This document shows, one piece after another, positions 1-41,920 of a stretch of DNA of 64,000 nt. The translations under genes were made by a program, and so were the position numbers. This DNA comes from a virus (lineage: Duplodnaviria; Caudoviricetes). Under the pieces are notes generated by a model, which was given only the letters and a program-made list of their open reading frames with translations, did not search any database and was not told the origin of the DNA. The DNA lies in IMG/VR virus record IMGVR_UViG_3300029288_007060, positions 1 through 64,000 of that record. One strand, 5' to 3'. Within the stretch, counting starts at the first letter, position 1, and each line of letters begins with the position of its first letter.

Positions 1-145
1 CATACGGCAAACCACGAGCCGGATACCAACGCAGGGTTTTGCTCTTCAGAACAGAAGGCATTGCCTCGTGTGCCAAGACCACAGAGTGCTCATCGCGGTA
101 CTCTTTCACCTGGTCGCAAAAATCCTTGAATGACTGTCGGTCCAT
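1..145 (-). CDS. hypothetical protein, runs off window edge (MDRQSFKDFCDQVKEYRDEH...)
   Basis: ATG at 145 preceded by AAGAAAGGAG RBS; frame open to base 1; absent from ORF track. Confidence 0.7.
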   Translation of the reverse strand, partial: MDRQSFKDFCDQVKEYRDEHSVVLAHEAMPSVLKSKTLRWYPARGLPY

Positions 146-167: not shown

Positions 168-340
168 CCTTCTGCGTTTACACGGACTTAGGACCGTCAA
201 ACTGTGCTTGTAGGCGTGCGTCAACGCCTCGTTAGTTCGGGAGGGGAAGGCGGGAGATTGTTTCACTCCCGTCCTCCCATATTTACTCCCTAGTCGTAGT
301 TGATTTGCACTACGGCCTCTGCACATGTTTGGTCGCATTA
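168..340 (-). ncRNA. twister ribozyme Tw1 with ~135 nt multibranched P3 insertion
   Basis: Minus strand U^AA-UGCG-AC-[P3 CAAAC..GUUUG]-ACGG-UCCUAAGU-CCGU-GUAAA-CGCA-GAAGG; P2 UGCG/CGCA, P4 ACGG/CCGU, T1 CCU/AGG, T2 AC/GU all complementary. Confidence 0.85.
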
Positions 341-474
341 CGGACTGGCATTACCAGCCCTTTGTTCTATCTGTTTGGCCTTGTAGCTATACTCACGGCC
401 AAGTCATTAGTACCCGTCTTTCTGCACTTTGGCATCCGGTTATTAAGGCGTGTGATAGGTTTAAGTGTTTGATA

Positions 475-672
475 CTATTGACCTATTTCACCTCCTTGTT
501 GTAGTAGGACCACATCCTCACACCCACACCTGCATGTGAATATGAGTCTCTCAACCGTTTGTCCTGGCCTGTTAGGGTCAGGTATTCGCACAGGCCGCAT
601 GACGTACTTCGGGATAAAGTACAGGTATTTCGCCTCTATACCACAGCCTTGACAGCGGTATCTGTTTTCCAT
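475..672 (-). CDS. small Cys-rich (CxxC...CxCxC) putative Zn-binding protein
   Basis: ORF track; GGGAAAGG RBS. Confidence 0.7.
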   Translation of the reverse strand: MENRYRCQGCGIEAKYLYFIPKYVMRPVRIPDPNRPGQTVERLIFTCRCGCEDVVLLQQGGEIGQ

Positions 673-685
673 AGTGTACCTTTCC

Positions 686-1060
686 CTAGCTGAGATTCGC
701 TATTACAGAACGAATCCTATCCAGCTTGGCTTGCTCGACGACAGCCAAATCAGGCGTACACCCAGTTTGGTCTGCCGATTCCAGCAAATCATTGATGGCG
801 TTGAGCAGATTGCGACGGTCCTGGAACAGCATGTCCCAAGTACGGCACCATCGCTTATACACCCAAGTGTCCAGCCAGCCTATGGTCCAGCGGAAAACCC
901 AACGCTCACGGAAACTTAGGATTGGACGTCCCGGTGCCCATTCGCCCACTTGCGTTGCCTTATACCGCCAGACAGACTGCGGCCGCCAATAGTTTTTGTG
1001 ATATGGCGGCCCCGGCAACCATTGGAGCACATGTCGAATACGCTCTGCTACTCTTTTCAT
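686..1060 (-). CDS. hypothetical Trp-rich protein
   Basis: ORF track; AGAAAGG RBS directly after Tw2. Confidence 0.7.
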   Translation of the reverse strand: MKRVAERIRHVLQWLPGPPYHKNYWRPQSVWRYKATQVGEWAPGRPILSFRERWVFRWTIGWLDTWVYKRWCRTWDMLFQDRRNLLNAINDLLESADQTGCTPDLAVVEQAKLDRIRSVIANLS

Positions 1061-1074
1061 AGACTTACCTTTCT

Positions 1075-1135
1075 CCCTCTGTTTTTACCCTGGCTTGGGA
1101 CAGGCTAGCGACCTCTAGGTCGCCAGGCAACATTA
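1075..1135 (-). ncRNA. twister ribozyme Tw2
   Basis: U^AA-UGUU-GC-[CUGGCGACC UAGA GGUCGCUAG]-CCUG-UCCCAAGC-CAGG-GUAAA-AACA-GAGGG; matches twister core, T1 CCC/GGG. Confidence 0.92.
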
Positions 1136-1138
1136 CGT

Positions 1139-1285
1139 GTGTTTGGGCCGGTGTAGATACATCAAGGTTATCAGCCTCTCCCACTACTCCGTTTGACCTA
1201 CTCGTGTTGTACCTCCAGGTTGATGACCCTTCGGCATTTTCACTTCCGGCCGACGTTCCCGCTCGTCCTGCTCCTACCCAAACAC
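1139..1285 (-). ncRNA. unknown structured RNA between Tw3 and Tw2
   Basis: 9-bp closing stem GUGUUUGGG/CCCAAACAC, inner stems, no convincing ORF. Confidence 0.55.
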
Positions 1286-1297
1286 TAGAACTCTATG

Positions 1298-1358
1298 CCC
1301 TCTGTTTTTACCCTGGCTTGGGACAGGCTAGCGTCCATTGGCACGCCAGGCAACATTA
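1298..1358 (-). ncRNA. twister ribozyme Tw3
   Basis: Identical to Tw2 except the distal 10 nt of P3. Confidence 0.92.
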
Positions 1359-1439
1359 AGCTAGGCTTTACTTAATCTTTAGGTTATCGGCCAAGCCTAG
1401 AAAAAGCCGATAGAGCCTAACCCTACGGACAGCCGGACT

Positions 1440-1805
1440 TTATACCCGGCTATATTTCGATGCCGGTCCTCTGGACCCGTTCCACACCAACACCTTGCGA
1501 GTGCAAAGATAGTCAACCTCATGCTCAACCAAAGCACGGTCGTAGTCGGCGAGAGACTCGCAAATCTCGCCAATGTTCTTCGGCTCGCACAAGCACACAC
1601 GAATACCACGACGGACTTCTACCCGTTGTCCTTCGGTGTATCTGCTACGCCCTTGGTATGCGTCGGCAGATTGTGCTTCCAGTTCAGCTAACCGTCGTTT
1701 CTCGGCTTGGACCTGTTCGTGGGCGTGTGCCGCTATACGTTCAGCGTCTACAACCGCGATTTTTTGTTGCTTGATAGCTTCTAACAAACGCGGCAAATTT
1801 TCCAT
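1440..1805 (-). CDS. hypothetical protein, N-terminal coiled coil
   Basis: ORF track; GGAAAGGA RBS. Confidence 0.75.
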   Translation of the reverse strand: MENLPRLLEAIKQQKIAVVDAERIAAHAHEQVQAEKRRLAELEAQSADAYQGRSRYTEGQRVEVRRGIRVCLCEPKNIGEICESLADYDRALVEHEVDYLCTRKVLVWNGSRGPASKYSRV

Positions 1806-1820
1806 TGACCGTTCCTTTCC

Positions 1821-1972
1821 GGGGCAGTATAACCCCTTGATTGGTTTGGGTATTTTGTTCGCCGAGTGACGGTCTTTCGGTCGGCACGCGGATACCCAAC
1901 CGCGTTGATAGGCCAGGGTTTCGCTTTGAGCTATGGTAGCGTTATGCTACCTTTGCGTCCCATCCCTATCAA
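1821..1972 (-). ncRNA. unknown structured RNA with possible pseudoknot
   Basis: Stems UUGAUAGG/CCUAUCAA, GGUAGC/GCUACC, CGCGG/CCGCG (loop UUGGGUAU complementary to downstream AUACCCAA), UGCCGA/UCGGCG, GGGG/CCCC. Confidence 0.55.
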
Positions 1973-1982
1973 AAGCCTCTGG

Positions 1983-2186
1983 CTAATATCCTGTTCGACG
2001 CCCATAAACTTCATTGGCGTCGTTTGTTGCGCGACAATACTCCTGCTCACTGATGGCGTCCAAAAACCATGCCATCTCAATCATGCCTTTCAGTATGCGA
2101 TAATTCCCATATAAATCAGGTATCTCGCACACTTTAATCAGGCGGAGATATTCCTTGATTTTTCCCGTCGCTACTGACTTGGACAT
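1983..2186 (-). CDS. hypothetical protein, paralog of 3406-3627
   Basis: Start moved to ATG 2186 (GGAAAGGG RBS; longer ORF would run through Tw4). Confidence 0.75.
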   Translation of the reverse strand: MSKSVATGKIKEYLRLIKVCEIPDLYGNYRILKGMIEMAWFLDAISEQEYCRATNDANEVYGRRTGY

Positions 2187-2197
2187 GACTGTTCCCT

Positions 2198-2286
2198 TTC
2201 CCACTCTGCGTTGGCTCATCGGATTCGCCTTTGAGCTACCCAGGCTTGTGACTGGCTATGAGGAATCCCATAGGCCGCATTAGGAA
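2198..2286 (-). ncRNA. twister ribozyme Tw4 (P1, P3 and P5 present)
   Basis: UUCC-U^AA-UGCG-GC-[P3]-CCAG-UCACAAGC-CUGG-[P5 GCUCA..UGAGC]-CGCA-GAGUG-GGAA; T1 CAC/GUG. Confidence 0.93.
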
Positions 2287-2310
2287 TTGTTATTCTATCA
2301 TATCAAACAC

Positions 2311-2691
2311 TTAGAACGCCATACGGTAAGACACATATCCTGGTATCAGGGCGTTGTGTACCAGGTTGATAGTCTCAATCTCTACTGTCAAGCCCAGAAA
2401 CACCTTTCTCACTGGCGATGGCAATATCATGGCCAGCACTAAGGCTGCACCATTAGCCAGCACAAACGAACCCCATATCCTAGCCGCACCAGGATTGCGA
2501 CCTAAGAGCGGATTATTCTCGACGAACAACTGATCGGCTCTTATTCCCTCGTGCGGGTGTTTGAGCCTGTATCTCGTGCTCATGACATCATACACCGATT
2601 CCGCAACCAGAGTCGTCATCAAGGCTGTATCGTATCTATCCCAATCCGCTGGCATGACGGATACCGAAAGCATAGCTAGTGCGTAAAACAT
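2311..2691 (-). CDS. putative membrane protein with D..ST / ExNPL motif (DUF5658-like)
   Basis: Hydrophobic segments, signal-like N-terminus; start at ATG 2691 after GGAAAGGA RBS. Confidence 0.7.
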   Translation of the reverse strand: MFYALAMLSVSVMPADWDRYDTALMTTLVAESVYDVMSTRYRLKHPHEGIRADQLFVENNPLLGRNPGAARIWGSFVLANGAALVLAMILPSPVRKVFLGLTVEIETINLVHNALIPGYVSYRMAF

Positions 2692-2703
2692 GACTGTTTC
2701 CTT

Positions 2704-2764
2704 TCCCACTCTGCATTAGGGGCTTGTGACCCGCTAGTGGCAAATCCACTAGGCTGCATTAGGA
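2704..2764 (-). ncRNA. twister ribozyme Tw5
   Basis: UCC-U^AA-UGCA-GC-[CUAGUGG AUUUG CCACUAG]-CGGG-UCACAAGC-CCCU-AA-UGCA-GAGUG-GGA. Confidence 0.92.
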
Positions 2765-2808
2765 GGGCCATTATTTCAGGCCCTATGCTCTAATTGTTTG
2801 GCTCTAGC

Positions 2809-3072
2809 CTACTCTTTGACTTTGAGCGTGGCCACGTTTGCCGCGATGAAAGCCTTGATGTCGTCGCTGTGCGCCAACAAGGTATCCATTTGGCCCTTGT
2901 AGAGTGTGACCGGGAAGCGGCCCAAGCCGTAGATACTGACCGCGCCCTTGGGGCTGACCTTGAGCGTGAAGTGTTGGCGTGCCGCAGCCTTGGCCTTGAG
3001 AGCGTCGTTCTCGGTCTGGAAACGGGCGATTTCGGCTTTCAACTGTTCCGGGGTCATGTTGTTGATGTCCAT
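2809..3072 (-). CDS. conserved hypothetical protein (LKVSxKGAVSIYGLGRFPVTLY family)
   Basis: Motif recognised from a widespread small bacterial protein family; GAAAGGA RBS before ATG 3072. Confidence 0.8.
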   Translation of the reverse strand: MDINNMTPEQLKAEIARFQTENDALKAKAAARQHFTLKVSPKGAVSIYGLGRFPVTLYKGQMDTLLAHSDDIKAFIAANVATLKVKE

Positions 3073-3317
3073 GGTACCTAACAATCCTTTCACAAAGGCG
3101 GCGTAATTGCCGCAAAAAACCGCTTTCACTAAATGCGAAAAAAATCGACTTGACCAATCAGCGAGTAGGCAAACTTCACCATCCCCGCTTTTTGCAGTTG
3201 AATTTTTTTTCGCGTTTTCGCACAAAAACGCAAACGAAAACGACTTCACTTCCAACCGACTAGATACACTCACGCCTTGGCTTCCGCAAAATGCTCCTAA
3301 GGTATAATTGTACCTAA

Positions 3318-3380
3318 CCGTGTTCTGTGTTTACCAGGGCTTACAACCTGCTAACGGCTATCCATTAGGCCACATTGCGG
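3318..3380 (-). ncRNA. twister ribozyme Tw6
   Basis: CCG-C^AA-UGUG-GC-[CUAAUGG AUAG CCGUUAG]-CAGG-UUGUAAGC-CCUG-GUAAA-CACA-GAACA-CGG; T1 UGU/ACA. Confidence 0.9.
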
Positions 3381-3387
3381 CATATCC

Positions 3388-3781
3388 TATGTGTGTATGT
3401 GTGTGTTAGTGTCCTCGACGTGTTCTAACAACATCGTTCGCGGTCCACACATAGTCAAATTCTTCTTTTTCTGTTATCAAGTCACACTCTTGCGCCATGC
3501 CTATTAAACCGCCGGCATAGTGTAAAACATGGTCAAGGTCACATTCACAGCAACGTCCTAGATAATCAATTTGACGTTGTATTCTTTCCAATGCCTTAAA
3601 CCGACGAGCCGCAATGATTGGGTCCATTGTCTTGCCTTTCCGCGTCGCCTTTCGGTCGTCCGCGTTTTTTGCGCTCTCACTTTTAGCGCGTTTTTTTGAC
3701 TTCACCTAAAACCTACCAGACACACTCATCCCTTGGTGCCGGCCATGATACTTACCATGACCATATGTGTGTATGTGTGTG
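3388..3781. repeat. identical 18-mer TATGTGTGTATGTGTGTG at 3388-3405 and 3764-3781 (partial third copy 3900-3910)
   Basis: Direct comparison; CA-rich on the transcribed strand; adjacent to Tw6 and Tw7. Confidence 0.85.
3406..3627 (-). CDS. hypothetical protein, paralog of 1983-2186
   Basis: Start at ATG 3627 with GGAAAGG RBS. Confidence 0.75.
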   Translation of the reverse strand: MDPIIAARRFKALERIQRQIDYLGRCCECDLDHVLHYAGGLIGMAQECDLITEKEEFDYVWTANDVVRTRRGH

Positions 3782-3877
3782 CCTGTGACTCTGCGTTGGC
3801 TCATCGGACTCGCCTTTGAGCTACCAGGGCTTGTCACCTGCTAATGTCAGACAACAACATTAGGCCGCATTACCAGG
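3782..3877 (-). ncRNA. twister ribozyme Tw7 (P1, P3 and P5 present)
   Basis: CCUG-G-U^AA-UGCG-GC-[P3]-CAGG-UGACAAGC-CCUG-[P5 as in Tw4]-CGCA-GAGUC-A-CAGG; T1 GAC/GUC. Confidence 0.92.
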
Positions 3878-3916
3878 GCGCCCTAGTGGCGCCTATGTCT
3901 ATGTGTGTGTCTATGC

Positions 3917-4552
3917 CTATTTGACTATCGGACGACCCTTTGACGCATTGCGTCGTGCAATCTCGGCTAGTTGTTCCTGTGACAATGCGCCGACGGTTTC
4001 ACGAGGCGTGGCTTTGAGCTTGTCTAGTTGTGCTTTAAGACTGGCATACTTCTCGGCAATGGCCACGGATTCGGCGGACTCGATGTCGCGCTGCGTTACA
4101 GGTTTCGGCGTGCCAGACAATACCACGCGCTCGACCGACTTACCTGCGACAACCTTTCGTATGGTAATGACAGGCTTTCTTGCCGTTCTTACCAGGCGCT
4201 CATTTTCAGCCGTGAGCTTGTTGACTTGGCGCGTCATGGTAGCCTTGCGGGTTGACTCTAGCTTGTGAACATCAATGCCGTGAGCGACCAATTTTTGAGC
4301 AAAGGCAAACATCGCATCCTGTCCTTGCGCATTGGCGACCCATTCCAATGCCGCAACATGGTCTTTGGGCTTGGCATTGTGAGCTAAGGCTTGTTCTACG
4401 CTTGCCCTACCCGTGCGGTATAGGTCTAGCATGGTCGTTTTTTTGGGTGCGTGCCAGCCTTGGCAATGGCGAAAGTCGTGAGCCTCACCATTGACTCGCG
4501 CACGACTTAGCACGTCGCGATAATTCCTGTCTGTTCCGTCAACGATTGCCAT
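3917..4552 (-). CDS. hypothetical basic protein, first gene of the ribozyme operon
   Basis: Start at ATG 4552 with GGGAAAGGG RBS, downstream of the sigma54 motif. Confidence 0.75.
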   Translation of the reverse strand: MAIVDGTDRNYRDVLSRARVNGEAHDFRHCQGWHAPKKTTMLDLYRTGRASVEQALAHNAKPKDHVAALEWVANAQGQDAMFAFAQKLVAHGIDVHKLESTRKATMTRQVNKLTAENERLVRTARKPVITIRKVVAGKSVERVVLSGTPKPVTQRDIESAESVAIAEKYASLKAQLDKLKATPRETVGALSQEQLAEIARRNASKGRPIVK

Positions 4553-4604
4553 GATGTTTTCCCTTTCCCTTGTGGCGTAGCGTCCGCCGTTTGCATGAAT
4601 ACAA

Positions 4605-4620
4605 TGCAATCGTGGTGCCA
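4605..4620 (-). promoter_or_regulatory. sigma54 (RpoN) -24/-12 promoter
   Basis: TGGCACCACGATTGCA fits TGGCAC-N5-TTGCW consensus, ~50 nt upstream of first gene. Confidence 0.8.
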
Positions 4621-4824
4621 AAAAAATTCTTTAATGATTTCAGCTATGAATTTTTTGCGATGCGCAATCGTTTTTACACTTTTGAAAATTCCCTAATGAA
4701 ATCAGGCGCGATTTTTTTACGCACTAGGCAATTTTTTACACGTCGGAACGACGCGCTGCGTCATCGGGCGTCGTTCCTTATACGCGATTTAGCACGACTT
4801 TTTGGTCCTAGTCGCTCCAAAGCT

Positions 4825-4984
4825 CTATGCAAAGATTGCATAACGTGATCAAAAGGCGCGACATTGTTGTCATATCGTCAATAAACCACGCAATCTTTGC
4901 ATAGTTTGATCAAAAAGCGTATGACTCAAATGTCGCTATGGCGTGGGCGTCATAGTTTAGTTATACACTACGCAAAGATTGCGC
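4825..4984. promoter_or_regulatory. three GCAAAGATTGC quasi-palindromic sites, candidate enhancer (UAS) elements
   Basis: TATGCAA-AGA-TTGCATA 4826-4842; inverted 15-bp copy 4890-4904; third copy 4968-4984. Confidence 0.55.
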
Positions 4985-5659
4985 AGTAAGAAGCGAGAGA
5001 TAGGCAAGGAGCCCACCCATAAGACCATATTTGCACAATTTTATCAATGATTATGTTTCGACCAGCGCTCCTAGAGCGCCTATTAACACCTATCGATTTA
5101 GAGCGTATTAAATTTTTTTCCTACTCGTATGTCTACTGATTTTGAGACACATCAATTGTTTAATCTCTATAGCTTTACTAGAGTGACATCAACACCTATC
5201 ATTCCTGTCGGGCCCATTAGCACTCTCCACTCTGTCATACTTTATAGGCTCATTATAATTGTGAGCTCTCTCTCTCCTGACTCATTATATTATTTACCCT
5301 CCCTTAGTGAAATTTAAGGGTATAAATAATAAAAAAATATCCTTGTATTATCAAGGACTTAGAAATCGCATATTTTATATAGACTGATACGGATTATTGG
5401 GTATTCTTTAACACCGTATAGGTGAGCGGATTTTATAATAAAAAGATAATAAAATCATATATTTGGCATTGATTAATGGTATAGTGAGTTTAACGAGGCT
5501 TATTAATCACTTTTATACGGTCAGAAGAGGAAATTAATAGAGTAAGTTGCACATCTGGGTTGCATAATGTTAGGTAATGAACGTTGTCTTCTTGTTCTTC
5601 GTCTATCACATTATACCTTCCTGCTAGGATATAAGTATATAGAAATTTAAAATTTAGAT

Positions 5660-8008: not shown

Positions 8009-8962
8009 TTAAACCTTCAGCAACTCCCCACTGGGTGATTTAGAGAACCATTTGATTTGAGGAAATCTTTCTAACAAATAATTCTCGTACGAGTCTAGAG
8101 TATCGAACATACTTAGTTTTGAGTTTTTGTATAGTCCTATTTTCATTCCATCTAGAATATCTAACTTGGTTACCACTATTTCATCCGGTTGTACTATAGA
8201 TATAGCATAATCTACATCGTCTTCGTTTAGCCAGGTACATTTCCTGGGCCTTCCGGTAGTTGCTCCAAATTCTTTGCCTCTTTCTCTCAATTCCGGAACA
8301 TCGGGAGTATAAGGTGGGCCATCCCCAACTCGAGTTACATATCCCTTCATAACCCCGATTGTTCGCCCAATCTTATGAGCCATACTGGGCATTACAGATG
8401 AGGAGGTAACATAAGGATAATTTCCGTAGTCGACGTCTAACATAATTCCTTGTGCGCCCTCATAAAGAGCTGATTCGGCCCCAAATGGAGGAAGTCCAGA
8501 ATAGACAGTGCACCCTAATTCTTTCTCCACATCAGCTTTGATATTTTCTATCCTGATACCTTTTCTTAATGCCCTATCCGCATACACATAAGCTATTCCT
8601 CTTTTTGTACTACCTATTCCACTACCATCACTATCTTGTTTCAGATGTTTGTCCTGGATAAGGTGTACATTTTTGGAAATATATAATTCTGCCGGATGCT
8701 TCAGCGTCTTTAATTCAACTTTCAGTTCTTCTAAATTGATAGCCATTCCGGCATCTAGTGCTATTTTCTTGCCAAATACTGCTCCAGCTGGCAAATGATG
8801 TAGCTTGTATTCTGTGCCCTCATTATCATAGACTGTGTGGCCAGCATTATTCGATCCGTTAAAACGAACCGACCATTGATAATTGTGTTTCTCACAAAAA
8901 TAGGCAGACACTCTTCCCTTGCCGGTATCGCCATAACTAAGATCGCATATTAACGTTTTCAT
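8009..8962 (-). CDS. purA: adenylosuccinate synthetase (short form)
   Basis: GDTGKG, RFNGSNNAGHT, IGSTKRGI, EGAQG, YPYVTSS, TRVGDGP, EFGATTGRPR, TKLD motifs. Confidence 0.95.
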   Translation of the reverse strand: MKTLICDLSYGDTGKGRVSAYFCEKHNYQWSVRFNGSNNAGHTVYDNEGTEYKLHHLPAGAVFGKKIALDAGMAINLEELKVELKTLKHPAELYISKNVHLIQDKHLKQDSDGSGIGSTKRGIAYVYADRALRKGIRIENIKADVEKELGCTVYSGLPPFGAESALYEGAQGIMLDVDYGNYPYVTSSSVMPSMAHKIGRTIGVMKGYVTRVGDGPPYTPDVPELRERGKEFGATTGRPRKCTWLNEDDVDYAISIVQPDEIVVTKLDILDGMKIGLYKNSKLSMFDTLDSYENYLLERFPQIKWFSKSPSGELLKV

Positions 8963-12388: not shown

Positions 12389-12637
12389 CTAAGGTAGAAA
12401 TATTTTTTCTGCCTGTTTTTTGGGTCTTAATGTGTATAGTATGCGCGAGCCTGAAAAATTATCCTCTATTTTTATTTCATATACATTATTTAATTTATCA
12501 GTACTTATGTTTATTGTGCTGTTAACTTTTTTAGCATGTAATATCTGAAAATACAATTGTTTAATTGGGTTGTTGCTGTTGTTTAGACGATTCATTGTAT
12601 TTATATATTGCCATAACTGCTTACTAACGCTTTCCAT
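12389..12637 (-). CDS. hypothetical protein
   Basis: ORF track. Confidence 0.55.
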   Translation of the reverse strand: MESVSKQLWQYINTMNRLNNSNNPIKQLYFQILHAKKVNSTINISTDKLNNVYEIKIEDNFSGSRILYTLRPKKQAEKIFLP

Positions 12638-13724
12638 GCGGCGTTCCTTCTGTGACTCCAGCCGCCGTTACCCGGCGCCATACAGCTTTTTCTCGCAACT
12701 CGGCCAAATTACGCGCACCAGCATAACTCAACCCAACTTTAACCGACTGACACAAGCCTTCTACAACTCTGTATGCCGATCGCCCCGTGTATGGAACTTT
12801 AGTGCTTACACCTTCGCTGGGCAAGCCGGCTTTTGATTTATCGAACCATTTTTTTCGTCCTTCTACACTAGCCATACCATGATAATATTTAAAAAGCTGT
12901 CCATTTTCTTCCAACCATTCGCCTGGCGATTCTATGGTACCAGCCAACAGAGACCCAATCATTATGGCATCAGCTCCTATAGCTAAAGCCTTTACTATAT
13001 CTCCACTATATCTTATTCCGCCATCTGCTATCAAAGCTATATTGGGATATTCTTCCTTAATTCTCGCACAGTCCTCTATAGCTGATAACTGCGGAACTCC
13101 GTGACCAGTCACGAGTCTGGTAGTGCAGACAGCCCCAGGCCCTACACCAACGCGCAGAGAATTGGCTCCAGCCGCCGCTAAATCCCGGGCGCCCGCGAGT
13201 GTGCAAACATTTCCGGCCATAATATTAACCGTGGGCCAACGGGCTCGTAAAGCCCTAACCGTATTTATACACAAAGCGTTGTGTCCATTGGCCACATCTA
13301 TACAAATTCCATGGACCCCAGCTTCCATTAGCGCAGCAGCCCGGTCGGAAGAATCTCCTTGCGGCCCTTGAGCTCCCACCGCAGCATAGAACTTTTGTGT
13401 ACAATTAGGCCCCCATGATAAAACTGGGGTGTCGGAGACAGCGTCTGAAAGACGCGCCATAACATTTTTGCACATATTGTATTGATCTTCTATAGACATA
13501 TAGCGATGCAATACGCCAGTGGCGCCCATATCGCACATAGCCACCAACATATCTTCTTCACAAACAGTATTCATTGGTGCTGCCACTATTGGTAGCGGGA
13601 AATCAAAGTCTGGAAGACTAACATTAATTTCTGGGTCTTTTCTGGATTTTATTTCCGAGTGCATCGGCACCAACACAAAATCATCAAATGTATAGGCAGT
13701 TTCCGCATCTTGTAACTTGCTCAT
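12624..13724 (-). CDS. guaB: IMP dehydrogenase / GMP reductase family (no CBS domains)
   Basis: TFDD, PIVAAPM, DVANGH, GVGPGAVCTTR, IADGGI, GMAS, EGV motifs; GAAAGG RBS before ATG 13724. Confidence 0.85.
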   Translation of the reverse strand: MSKLQDAETAYTFDDFVLVPMHSEIKSRKDPEINVSLPDFDFPLPIVAAPMNTVCEEDMLVAMCDMGATGVLHRYMSIEDQYNMCKNVMARLSDAVSDTPVLSWGPNCTQKFYAAVGAQGPQGDSSDRAAALMEAGVHGICIDVANGHNALCINTVRALRARWPTVNIMAGNVCTLAGARDLAAAGANSLRVGVGPGAVCTTRLVTGHGVPQLSAIEDCARIKEEYPNIALIADGGIRYSGDIVKALAIGADAIMIGSLLAGTIESPGEWLEENGQLFKYYHGMASVEGRKKWFDKSKAGLPSEGVSTKVPYTGRSAYRVVEGLCQSVKVGLSYAGARNLAELREKAVWRRVTAAGVTEGTPHGKR

Positions 13725-13819
13725 TATTGTACCTTTCGTTTCGTTTTTACATGACAATGGGCAGACCAGACGCGGATGCGGATGGCTGCCCATTGAATTA
13801 GATATCGCAATTAGGTAGC

Positions 13820-41063: not shown

Positions 41064-41920
41064 TATTTAATCTTTTTTGATATAACGCCGGGGATTTTTT
41101 CCCAATCTTTTTCTGGACGCCCCTCAAGATTCTGTTTCCATGCCGCTTCAATAATCTTAGGGTCAATTTCGTGCCGTTTACTAAAATCAATTAAGGCATT
41201 GATATCTTTGGGAAAACATGATCCTGATACACAAAAGCCTCCGTCATGTCCTGGGACATCACAGTGGCTGCGCCCAATGCGGCCGTCGGCCAATACCATA
41301 TCTTTTACATCATCGTATTGTATTTCTAATTTTTGACACAATTCATAAATGAAATTAAAATAGTTGACTTTGACCGCAAAAAAACAATTGGCCGCGTATT
41401 TTGTTAATTCTGCGGACTTCCAATCGGTTTTATAAATTGGCATTGAGTTACCAAAACGATGCCTATATAACTCTTCAACCCTATCTACTGGTTCTTTCTC
41501 TCCCCCAAGAATATTACGGGCCGCGCAAATAAAATCCAATTTGTTATTTCTGGCCGTAAGGAATTCGGGATTAGATACAAATTTTAAATTTGGATATTTG
41601 TTTTGAAACATTTCGTTGGTTCCTGGCAACACCGTACTCTTAATTATAGCAATTTTGTTACCTTCCGCTGACACTTTGTCATGCACTTCTTTAACCGCAC
41701 CCTCTAATATTGTTAAATCTTGATTTCCGTCTTCTTCATACATAGGCGTCGGAAGACAAAAAAACAGGTACTCACTGCTATTTATAGTGTCTTCAAGCGT
41801 ATTAAATCCTTTCTTAAATTTATCATAAATCTTAATATTGGCATGCAGCCCAAACCCATGACAAACTGCCGACCCAAGAAAACCAAATCCAATTATACCT
41901 ATATTAAAATCATTTGCCAT
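41063..41920 (-). CDS. UDP-glucose/GDP-mannose dehydrogenase family (lacks C-terminal domain)
   Basis: GFGFLG, CLPTP, IKSTVLPGT, NPEFL, AELTKY, GSCFPKD. Confidence 0.9.
   Translation of the reverse strand: MANDFNIGIIGFGFLGSAVCHGFGLHANIKIYDKFKKGFNTLEDTINSSEYLFFCLPTPMYEEDGNQDLTILEGAVKEVHDKVSAEGNKIAIIKSTVLPGTNEMFQNKYPNLKFVSNPEFLTARNNKLDFICAARNILGGEKEPVDRVEELYRHRFGNSMPIYKTDWKSAELTKYAANCFFAVKVNYFNFIYELCQKLEIQYDDVKDMVLADGRIGRSHCDVPGHDGGFCVSGSCFPKDINALIDFSKRHEIDPKIIEAAWKQNLEGRPEKDWEKIPGVISKKIK

Follow-up and report, generated by a model that had tools for sequence, protein, structure and literature searches.

The DNA analysed here (hereafter the window, at its full length of 64,000 nucleotides, nt) is the first 64 kb of the 158-kb IMG/VR "provirus" record IMGVR_UViG_3300029288_007060, a member of the Caudoviricetes (Duplodnaviria), and its first 6 kb carry a row of small minus-strand genes and, between them, seven structured elements that we designate A to G and assign by sequence and predicted fold to the type-P1 twister ribozymes. 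An initial annotation, drawn up from the letters alone, had proposed that these seven ribozymes dice a polycistronic phage transcript into gene-sized pieces. In agreement with that annotation, a map of open reading frames (ORFs) and twisters places every copy between genes and in the same orientation as the genes.

All seven elements are recovered by the Rfam model of the class (RF03160, twister-P1) when cmscan is run in E-value mode, which returns exactly seven matches in the window, all on the minus strand, all within the first 6 kb and coinciding with the elements of the initial annotation. At the gathering threshold, on the other hand, the 64 kb give no match at all, so that a search with the Rfam twister model, which had been suggested as a check, gives matches in one mode and none in the other. 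The gathering score of RF03160 is 67.2 bits and the seven copies score 24.8-55.1 bits (E 1.2e-10 to 0.06); missing this threshold is not a ground for rejecting the elements, since the E-value mode together with the covariation is decisive. The low scores of F and G are due to large insertions that the Rfam model cannot bridge. For G, the seventh copy, we dropped the Rfam alignment in favour of a longer parse with P2, T2, T1 and a branched P3, which fits better. A covariance model of our own (R1), built from four of the window copies, recovers the three copies that were not used in training at 45.3, 37.6 and 17.9 bits and matches nothing in the window outside the seven. Scanning the 158-kb record with Rfam revealed no twister beyond the seven, and the array contains no hammerhead, pistol, hatchet, twister-sister or hepatitis delta virus (HDV)-like ribozyme at E up to 0.1-1. 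A strict hand-written descriptor finds 22 matches on the array strand inside the array. Across 201 kb the opposite strand gives none, and elsewhere there are three matches, all AT-rich junk; a chance origin is excluded. The invariant A 3' of the scissile bond (A+1), the catalytic G of the GA step and the AAG of loop L4 are present in 7/7 window copies. All seven predicted cut positions lie between N-1 and the invariant A, exactly where they had been placed before, and each of the compensatory pairs previously listed for P2, T1 and T2 is present.

The array is considerably larger than the window suggests. The first gene of the unit, which encodes 211 amino acids (aa), was found on a 246,754-bp ENA contig from a landfill metagenome, of which the IMG/VR record represents positions 75,812-233,818, and the left boundary of the record cuts through the array. 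We walked leftward along this parent contig by gene look-ups (stretches L002, L003, L005, L007, L009 and L074), scanning with R1 and Rfam; the part of the contig read starts 22 kb from its left end and stops 13 kb before its right end. Twenty-eight co-oriented twisters lie between contig positions 79,687 and 51,353 (28.3 kb), and two further copies at 41,439 and 26,776 bring the total to 30 in 53 kb; the same scans gave none on the opposite strand or in the right arm, which has a guanine-plus-cytosine (GC) content of 36%. Thus the array, first taken to comprise seven copies, comprises about thirty and continues past the left edge of the window, and the search for further copies that had been recommended was rewarded on the parent contig. 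About 23 of the 30 copies fall in DNA that IMG/VR trimmed off as host. The same twister subtype is carried by 63 other IMG/VR contigs, mostly with one copy per fetched stretch, and the richest of five whole IMG/VR records checked holds eight twisters. The array of about 30 is the largest example found of an arrangement that has been known in phages since 2011.

Judged by the base pairing of its copies, the fold is under selection. In a hand parse of 28 array copies, 110 of 112 cells are paired in P2 (9 combinations), 55 of 56 in T2 (4 combinations: GC/GC, AC/GU, GG/CC and one mismatched CC/GC), 84 of 84 in T1 (11 combinations of triplets) and 109 of 112 in P4 (20 combinations). When partners were shuffled among copies in 2000 tries, the observed pairing of P2, T2, T1 and P4 was never reached and that of P1 was reached once. 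The alignment made with the model (A3), in which a few insert-bearing rows are misaligned, has 87.8% paired cells against 63% after shuffling, with both-sided changes at 24 of its 25 pairs and a covariation score of 0.506, which drops to 0.03-0.07 if the 3' partners are shifted by 1-3 columns; in the same alignment P3 is 92.7% paired and both sides change at all 9 pairs. Pairwise identity among the copies has a median of only 57%, with A/B (86%) as the top pair, followed by pairs at 83% (copies 68720 and 66113) and 79%, and because of this low median we read the copies as old and kept in shape, not as recent duplicates. A+1 and the G of the GA step are kept in 28/28 copies, as the parse itself required; they are the general acid and the catalytic guanine of twister, respectively (PMC5408937). 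The closing stem P1 is absent from many copies (56/112 cells paired, 27 combinations), and in the window it has 3-4 bp in C, D, E and F and is missing from A, B and G. Since P1 is dispensable, P1-less twisters cleaving at almost the wild-type rate (PMC5408937), its frequent loss is no argument against activity. Outside the window, the loop AAG is replaced by CAG in one copy and by AAC in another, the latter change being compensated in T2.

In nine copies, including A, C and D of the window, the next ATG lies 14-15 nt past the last T1 base (T1'), and in these nine ATG-proximal copies a ribosome-binding site of the GGAAAGG or GAAAGG type directly follows the fold. Three twisters share the module GAGGGAGAAAGGCAAAG-N2-AUG, a near-copy of which, GAGGGAGAAAGGCAUAG, stands ahead of one start codon that has no twister. 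About twelve copies have a GC hairpin in front of them, which stops 1-5 nt before the predicted cut, among them F, C and G in the window (Table 1). Copies E and F are followed by leaders of 150-240 nt that have a block of about 40 nt in common.

It seems likely that about 30 functional twisters, set among the small genes that an uncultivated giant phage carries in one long block on a single strand, bring about co-transcriptional self-processing. From the fold, its covariation, the positions of the copies and the phage context, we infer cleavage in vivo, a single long transcript, and effects on stability and translation. Transcription would begin at a promoter region at about 5.3 kb in the window, and the window copies would then be the promoter-proximal part of the array. 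Each twister would fold as it is transcribed and cleave itself at the bond that links N-1 to the invariant A, and the products would be mono- and oligocistronic messenger RNAs (mRNAs), at least one transfer RNA (tRNA) and several non-coding pieces, formed without host RNase E or RNase III. The downstream piece would retain the whole twister and start with a 5'-hydroxyl buried in its compact double-pseudoknot fold, which in nine copies would lie 14-15 nt ahead of the start codon and be followed immediately on its 3' side by the ribosome-binding site. The upstream piece would carry a 2',3'-cyclic phosphate at its terminus, in many cases 1-5 nt past a GC hairpin, as with the hairpin ahead of twister F, which would become the upstream mRNA's 3' end. 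The likely benefits would be RNA ends that are defined and resist nucleases, and translation starts shielded from the influence of neighbouring sequence.

Several observations weigh against this interpretation or limit its reach. Twister-free runs of 8-15 genes occur, so that one gene per piece is not the rule, and several twister-bounded segments, such as the one between B and A, have no ORF; the view that the transcript pieces would all be gene-sized does not hold, given these long runs, the ORF-less pieces and a piece with a tRNA. Outside the window, three copies carry defects (Table 1) and are possibly inactive. That there is one transcription unit is deduced from gene orientation and consensus scans, and promoters invisible to such scans may be present. 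All copies stay under the Rfam gathering score (67.2 bits; best copy 55.1 bits). The array block has 45-51% GC, the remainder of the phage 36%. The Logan contigs, from a second assembler, break only at the near-identical twisters A and B (window 1075-1327), with a mean depth of 28.9 to the left of A/B, 37.6 between them and 18.4 to the right, which hints at coexisting variants with differences at a twister boundary; strain mixtures or recombinants may be involved. Finally, the sequence is known from one landfill sample only, a single DNA run that is probably its source, and among the runs listed as containing it there is none of RNA.

Table 1. Features of the twister array (window positions unless a contig position is given; bits are Rfam scores for RF03160 unless R1 is named)
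Feature	Position	Strand	Details
Terminator-like hairpin	5358-5339	-	
Two sigma-70-like promoters	5354-5326 and 5311-5284	-	consensus scan
Upstream control region	4553..5358	-	
Three copies of CTAYGCAAAGATTGC	4825-4983	-	part of the leader ahead of the first gene; orientation alternates, spacing 65-78 bp
First gene of the unit	3917..4552	-	211 aa
GC hairpin GGCGCC-ACUAG-GGCGCC	3877..3893	-	stops 4 nt ahead of the twister F cut; the 46 nt preceding the cut fold at -12.5 kcal/mol (RNAfold)
Twister F	3782..3877	-	predicted cut U3872/A3871; match 3809-3876, 29.6 bits, misaligned across P5; P1 CCUG/CAGG, P2 UGCG/CGCA, P4 CAGG/CCUG, T1 GAC/GUC; 29-nt P5 hairpin insert between P4 and P2', true 3' half beyond the hairpin
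Twister E	3317..3381	-	predicted cut C3377/A3376; 41.1 bits, R1 75.8 bits; P1 GCCG/CGGU, P2 UGUG/CACA, T1 UGU/ACA
Hairpin AGGGCC/GGCCCU	2764..2784	-	stops 3 nt ahead of the twister C cut; -11.1 kcal/mol, z -2.1
Twister C	2703..2765	-	predicted cut U2761/A2760; 45.8 bits; P2 UGCA/UGCA, T1 CAC/GUG; start codon at 2691, 15 nt past T1'
Twister D	2198..2286	-	predicted cut U2282/A2281; 44.7 bits, R1 45.3 bits (non-training copy); P1 UUCC/GGAA, P2 UGCG/CGCA, T1 CAC/GUG; P5 hairpin nearly identical to that of F; start codon at 2186, 15 nt past T1'
Twister B	1294..1362	-	predicted cut U1358/A1357; 51.6 bits; without P1; P2 UGUU/AACA, T1 CCC/GGG
ORF-free segment between twisters B and A	1140..1293	-	154 nt
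Twister A	1071..1139	-	predicted cut U1135/A1134; 55.1 bits, E 1.2e-10; without P1; core 86% identical to B; start codon at 1060, 14 nt past T1'
8-bp hairpin	342..360	-	stops 1 nt ahead of the N-1 base of twister G; -12.8 kcal/mol, z -3.0
Twister G	168..340	-	predicted cut U340/A339; match covers the 3' part only (164-238, 24.8 bits, E 0.06); P2 UGCG/CGCA, T2 AC/GU, T1 CCU/AGG, P4 ACGG/CCGU; 133-nt branched P3 insert; minimum-energy fold recovers P2, P3 and P4 (z -5.0); start codon at 145, spacing 22 nt
Eight more small ORFs	3406-3627, 2809-3072, 2311-2691, 1983-2186, 1440-1805, 686-1060, 475-672, 2-145	-	the last runs off the window edge
Defective twister copy	contig 71268		P2 and T2 mismatches
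Defective twister copy	contig 58867		3-bp P2
Defective twister copy	contig 57176		loop A to C

If both B and A were cut, the ORF-free segment between them would be freed as a discrete RNA with twister B at its 5' end. Pieces of this kind are relevant to another idea of the initial annotation, namely that an RtcB-type ligase might join the 5'-hydroxyl and 2',3'-cyclic-phosphate ends into circular mRNAs, to which circular non-coding RNAs can be added. The end chemistry of twister products suits RtcB, which is encoded in 10 of 14 control bacterial genomes, and short ORF-less segments do exist in the array. However, RtcB, a DRB0094-type RNA ligase and a CCA-adding enzyme were not found in the 158-kb record; moreover, a circle would rebuild a complete twister core, for which P1 is dispensable, and would cut itself again, and circles or spliced products that were sought from clustered hammerheads were not found (PMC3088659). 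With neither RtcB nor an RNA ligase in the record, the idea is left without support, and we consider circularization extremely unlikely.

The recurrence of one twister and ribosome-binding-site module could also be explained at the level of DNA. The module would then chiefly be a portable gene-boundary unit whose short common sequence permits recombination, comparable to the attC sites of integron cassettes, so that phages could acquire, lose and shuffle ORFan genes; RNA cleavage would be secondary and would allow a newly arrived gene to be expressed at any site. Consistent with this, sub-families of copies share more than the catalytic core (the A/B pair, the pair 68720/66113 and the P5 arm of D and F), the module recurs at three twisters and, nearly intact, at a start codon without one, all genes of the block are ORFans, and the composition of the block is foreign to the rest of the phage; the assembly graphs break at twisters A and B with a different depth across them, and two twisters flank a gene for an AT-rich HNH endonuclease that is read from the other strand. 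Set against these points, no related phage with another order of cassettes turned up in the searches of GenBank phages and IMG/VR, so that no gain or loss at a twister boundary was observed, no recombinase is associated with the block, and a median identity of 57% is too low for efficient homologous recombination. Furthermore, the strong covariation speaks for selection on an RNA fold that a role in DNA would not need. A role at the DNA level with cleavage as a by-product therefore appears quite unlikely to us. We also think it unlikely, if worth stating, that the block of 28-53 kb is a ribozyme-delimited cassette system, in which the twister and ribosome-binding-site adaptor would make any captured ORF, tRNA or small RNA independent and end-protected and the modules would serve as exchange joints between phages; if true, such a system would give phage self-cleaving ribozymes a general, testable role, including twister-mediated maturation of tRNA 3' ends.

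The HNH gene mentioned above (L003 11662-12288, 34% GC, strand opposite to the array) looks like a homing-endonuclease insertion. Two array ORFs, at contig 69535-69215 and 53877-53509 (L003 and L005), share the C-terminal motif EIDGKKYKL, and one of them is followed by a near-copy of the twister 3' and ribosome-binding-site module without a twister; hence, the block holds paralogues and possible dead copies. The block common to the leaders after E and F lies at 3698-3736 and 3242-3280 and reads CCAAGG..UGAGUGU.UCU.GU ... GUGAAGUC, which the contig contains at no other place; either a leader RNA element or the beginning of N-terminal extensions with GTG starts could account for it. Long GTG-started versions of the two ORFs downstream of these leaders (2809-3273 and 3406-3705), which overlap ribozymes, are unlikely starts, and the ORFs 90-338 and 3706-3837, which likewise overlap ribozymes, were judged to be artefacts. 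A CA-rich motif, ACACACAUACACACAUA, is found twice and in one variant (3764-3780, 3388-3404 and 3894-3907), and only there in 211 kb, either between a stop codon and the following twister or directly after twister F. The only long gap without a twister (1806-1982, 177 nt) contains UAGCUCAAAGCGAA, which resembles the P5 arm of D and F, and has no Rfam match. Pfam and PHROGs gave nothing credible for the nine window ORFs; in 5.8 billion proteins the 211-aa product of the first gene matched only itself, and the ESM Atlas gave no relative. The consensus scan found no terminator-like site on the array strand within the window's part of the array. The three CTAYGCAAAGATTGC repeats ahead of the first gene look like operators.

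The GC content of the locus changes sharply, from 36% to about 50%, at 4.7-5.1 kb in the window, where the terminator-like hairpin, the two promoter-like sites and the leader with the operator-like repeats are also located, and from there it sinks slowly along the direction of transcription, reaching about 40% after roughly 50 kb. ORFs as well as ribozymes are GC-rich in this block. Such a step, together with the unequal contig depth across twisters A and B, the single sample, and the fact that IMG/VR called the record a provirus and cut it inside the block, might indicate that the 50%-GC block belongs to the host or to another element and was either misjoined by assembly or rightly trimmed. 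Yet the ENA assembly and Logan both join the two sides, a 103-kb Logan contig spanning the step without any difference to the ENA assembly; gene strand and density are unchanged across it, and GC falls back gradually. In addition, the 57 kb that follow leftward carry no cellular housekeeping genes, only small same-strand ORFs along with genes for ClpP, NT5C, NADAR, a DksA-type zinc finger, a radical-SAM protein and the HNH endonuclease, and CheckV, which estimates 39% completeness at 158 kb, expects a genome of about 400 kb, which favours a jumbo lytic phage over a prophage. We regard foreign ownership or a misassembly as very unlikely, and take the array block for phage DNA, trimmed by IMG/VR as "host" because it lacks viral marker genes; a jumbo lytic phage is the likelier source, and the label "provirus" is probably wrong. 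It follows from the trimming that the array was split and most of it discarded as "host", and all thirty copies are invisible at the Rfam gathering score. Phage catalogues therefore probably under-count such arrays.

The right arm is that of a large phage. It encodes DnaB, a helicase, ribonucleotide reductase, PhoH, ThyX, RNase HII and a PurZ-like adenylosuccinate synthetase, ClpP is encoded on the same contig to the left of the window, and the nearest cultured relative, Bacillus phage G, is distant (26% identity in DnaB). The adenylosuccinate-synthetase homologue (8009-8962) has as its best PHROG phrog_1211, "2-aminooxy adenylosuccinate synthetase", which we read as the PurZ family, and an IMPDH-family gene (12624-13793) and ThyX are found near it; on the basis of these genes, the phage may modify its DNA bases (2-aminoadenine). 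The best NCBIfam match of a 143-aa P-loop kinase (L074 13904-14335) is to bacterial Pnkp, in its 5'-kinase domain, at E 8.6e-8 and far below the cut-off, and it is a speculative thought that a polynucleotide kinase could phosphorylate the 5'-hydroxyl ends made by the twisters. Relatives of the locus were not found by blastn against GenBank phages, by searching IMG/VR with two ORFs, with two exact twister sub-patterns, or in the protein searches with the 211-aa ORF.

One copy of the array adjoins a tRNA gene. About 320 bp past the left edge of the window (L003 4882-5064, contig 75486-75304), there is a tRNA-Lys(UUU) whose 7-bp acceptor stem is perfect and whose CCA is encoded. Right after it comes U^AAUGCGGCC, which belongs to a P1-less twister (L003 4955-5064); ^ marks the predicted cut. 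This twister would cut one base past the CCA and leave tRNA-CCA-U with a cyclic phosphate. The second tRNA, Leu(UAA) at L003 5735-5819, has neither a CCA nor a twister. Rfam gives no HDV-like match after the tRNA-Lys, and the element is a twister without the minimal HDV-like fold. A search of IMG/VR with one narrow pattern of tRNA-CCA followed by a twister returned 46 stretches, about half of them with real tRNAs and none with an R1 twister. The theta (minimal HDV-like) ribozymes likewise cut at their own 5' edge where it abuts the 3' end of a phage tRNA (PMC10879173). The tRNA-Lys case differs from these in that the fold is that of a twister, the CCA is encoded, one extra U is left and only one of the two tRNAs is concerned. 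By analogy with the removal of the trailer by theta ribozymes, the twister could release the tRNA from the trailer with no need of host RNases.

The elements of the array follow the plan of the type-P1 twister class (RF03160; Roth et al., 2014; reviewed in PMC5408937), with the same order of P1, N^AA, P2, GC (T2), optional P3, P4, the loop U-NNN-AAGC, optional P5, P2', GA and NNN (T1), both pseudoknots, A+1 and the catalytic G, the RNA ending at P1. They depart from it in scoring below the gathering score, in being P1-less in many cases and in large inserts in P3 (up to 133 nt) or P5; at N-1, one array copy has C and another A. Little is settled about what self-cleaving ribozymes do in bacteria and phages (PMC6765202). 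It had been suggested, with reserve, that so dense an array in a protein operon was undescribed, but both the arrangement and the idea of processing are on record: Perreault et al. (2011) reported clustered hammerheads that flank single genes or short gene blocks in prophages, showed that they cleave in vitro and proposed processing to single-gene mRNAs (PMC3088659), and a 2019 review recorded the same proposal for twisters and noted their neighbourhood to phage genes (PMC6765202). The array resembles the prophage hammerheads in having several co-oriented ribozymes between small, variable phage genes and in the role proposed for them, the division of a long phage transcript into mRNAs of gene or operon length, whereas it differs in the ribozyme class, in the number of copies (30 against two or three), and in a predicted cut at the 5' edge of the ribozyme, with the fold being kept on the downstream piece (PMC3088659). 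What is distinctive here is the 30 copies, their diversity, the fixed module from twister to start codon and the twister that abuts the CCA end of a tRNA. With thirty diverged copies in one direction of transcription, eleven T1 variants, forms with and without P1 and large P3 or P5 inserts, the array is a rich natural test bed, and the fixed spacing to the start codon and the upstream hairpins each suggest a specific, measurable effect on translation and mRNA ends. In the engineered pRAP polycistronic co-expression system, a twister is placed between cistrons, and this system and synthetic ribozyme insulators follow the same logic that we propose for the natural array, in which each gene would obtain its own message and an unobstructed ribosome-binding site (PMC9872166).

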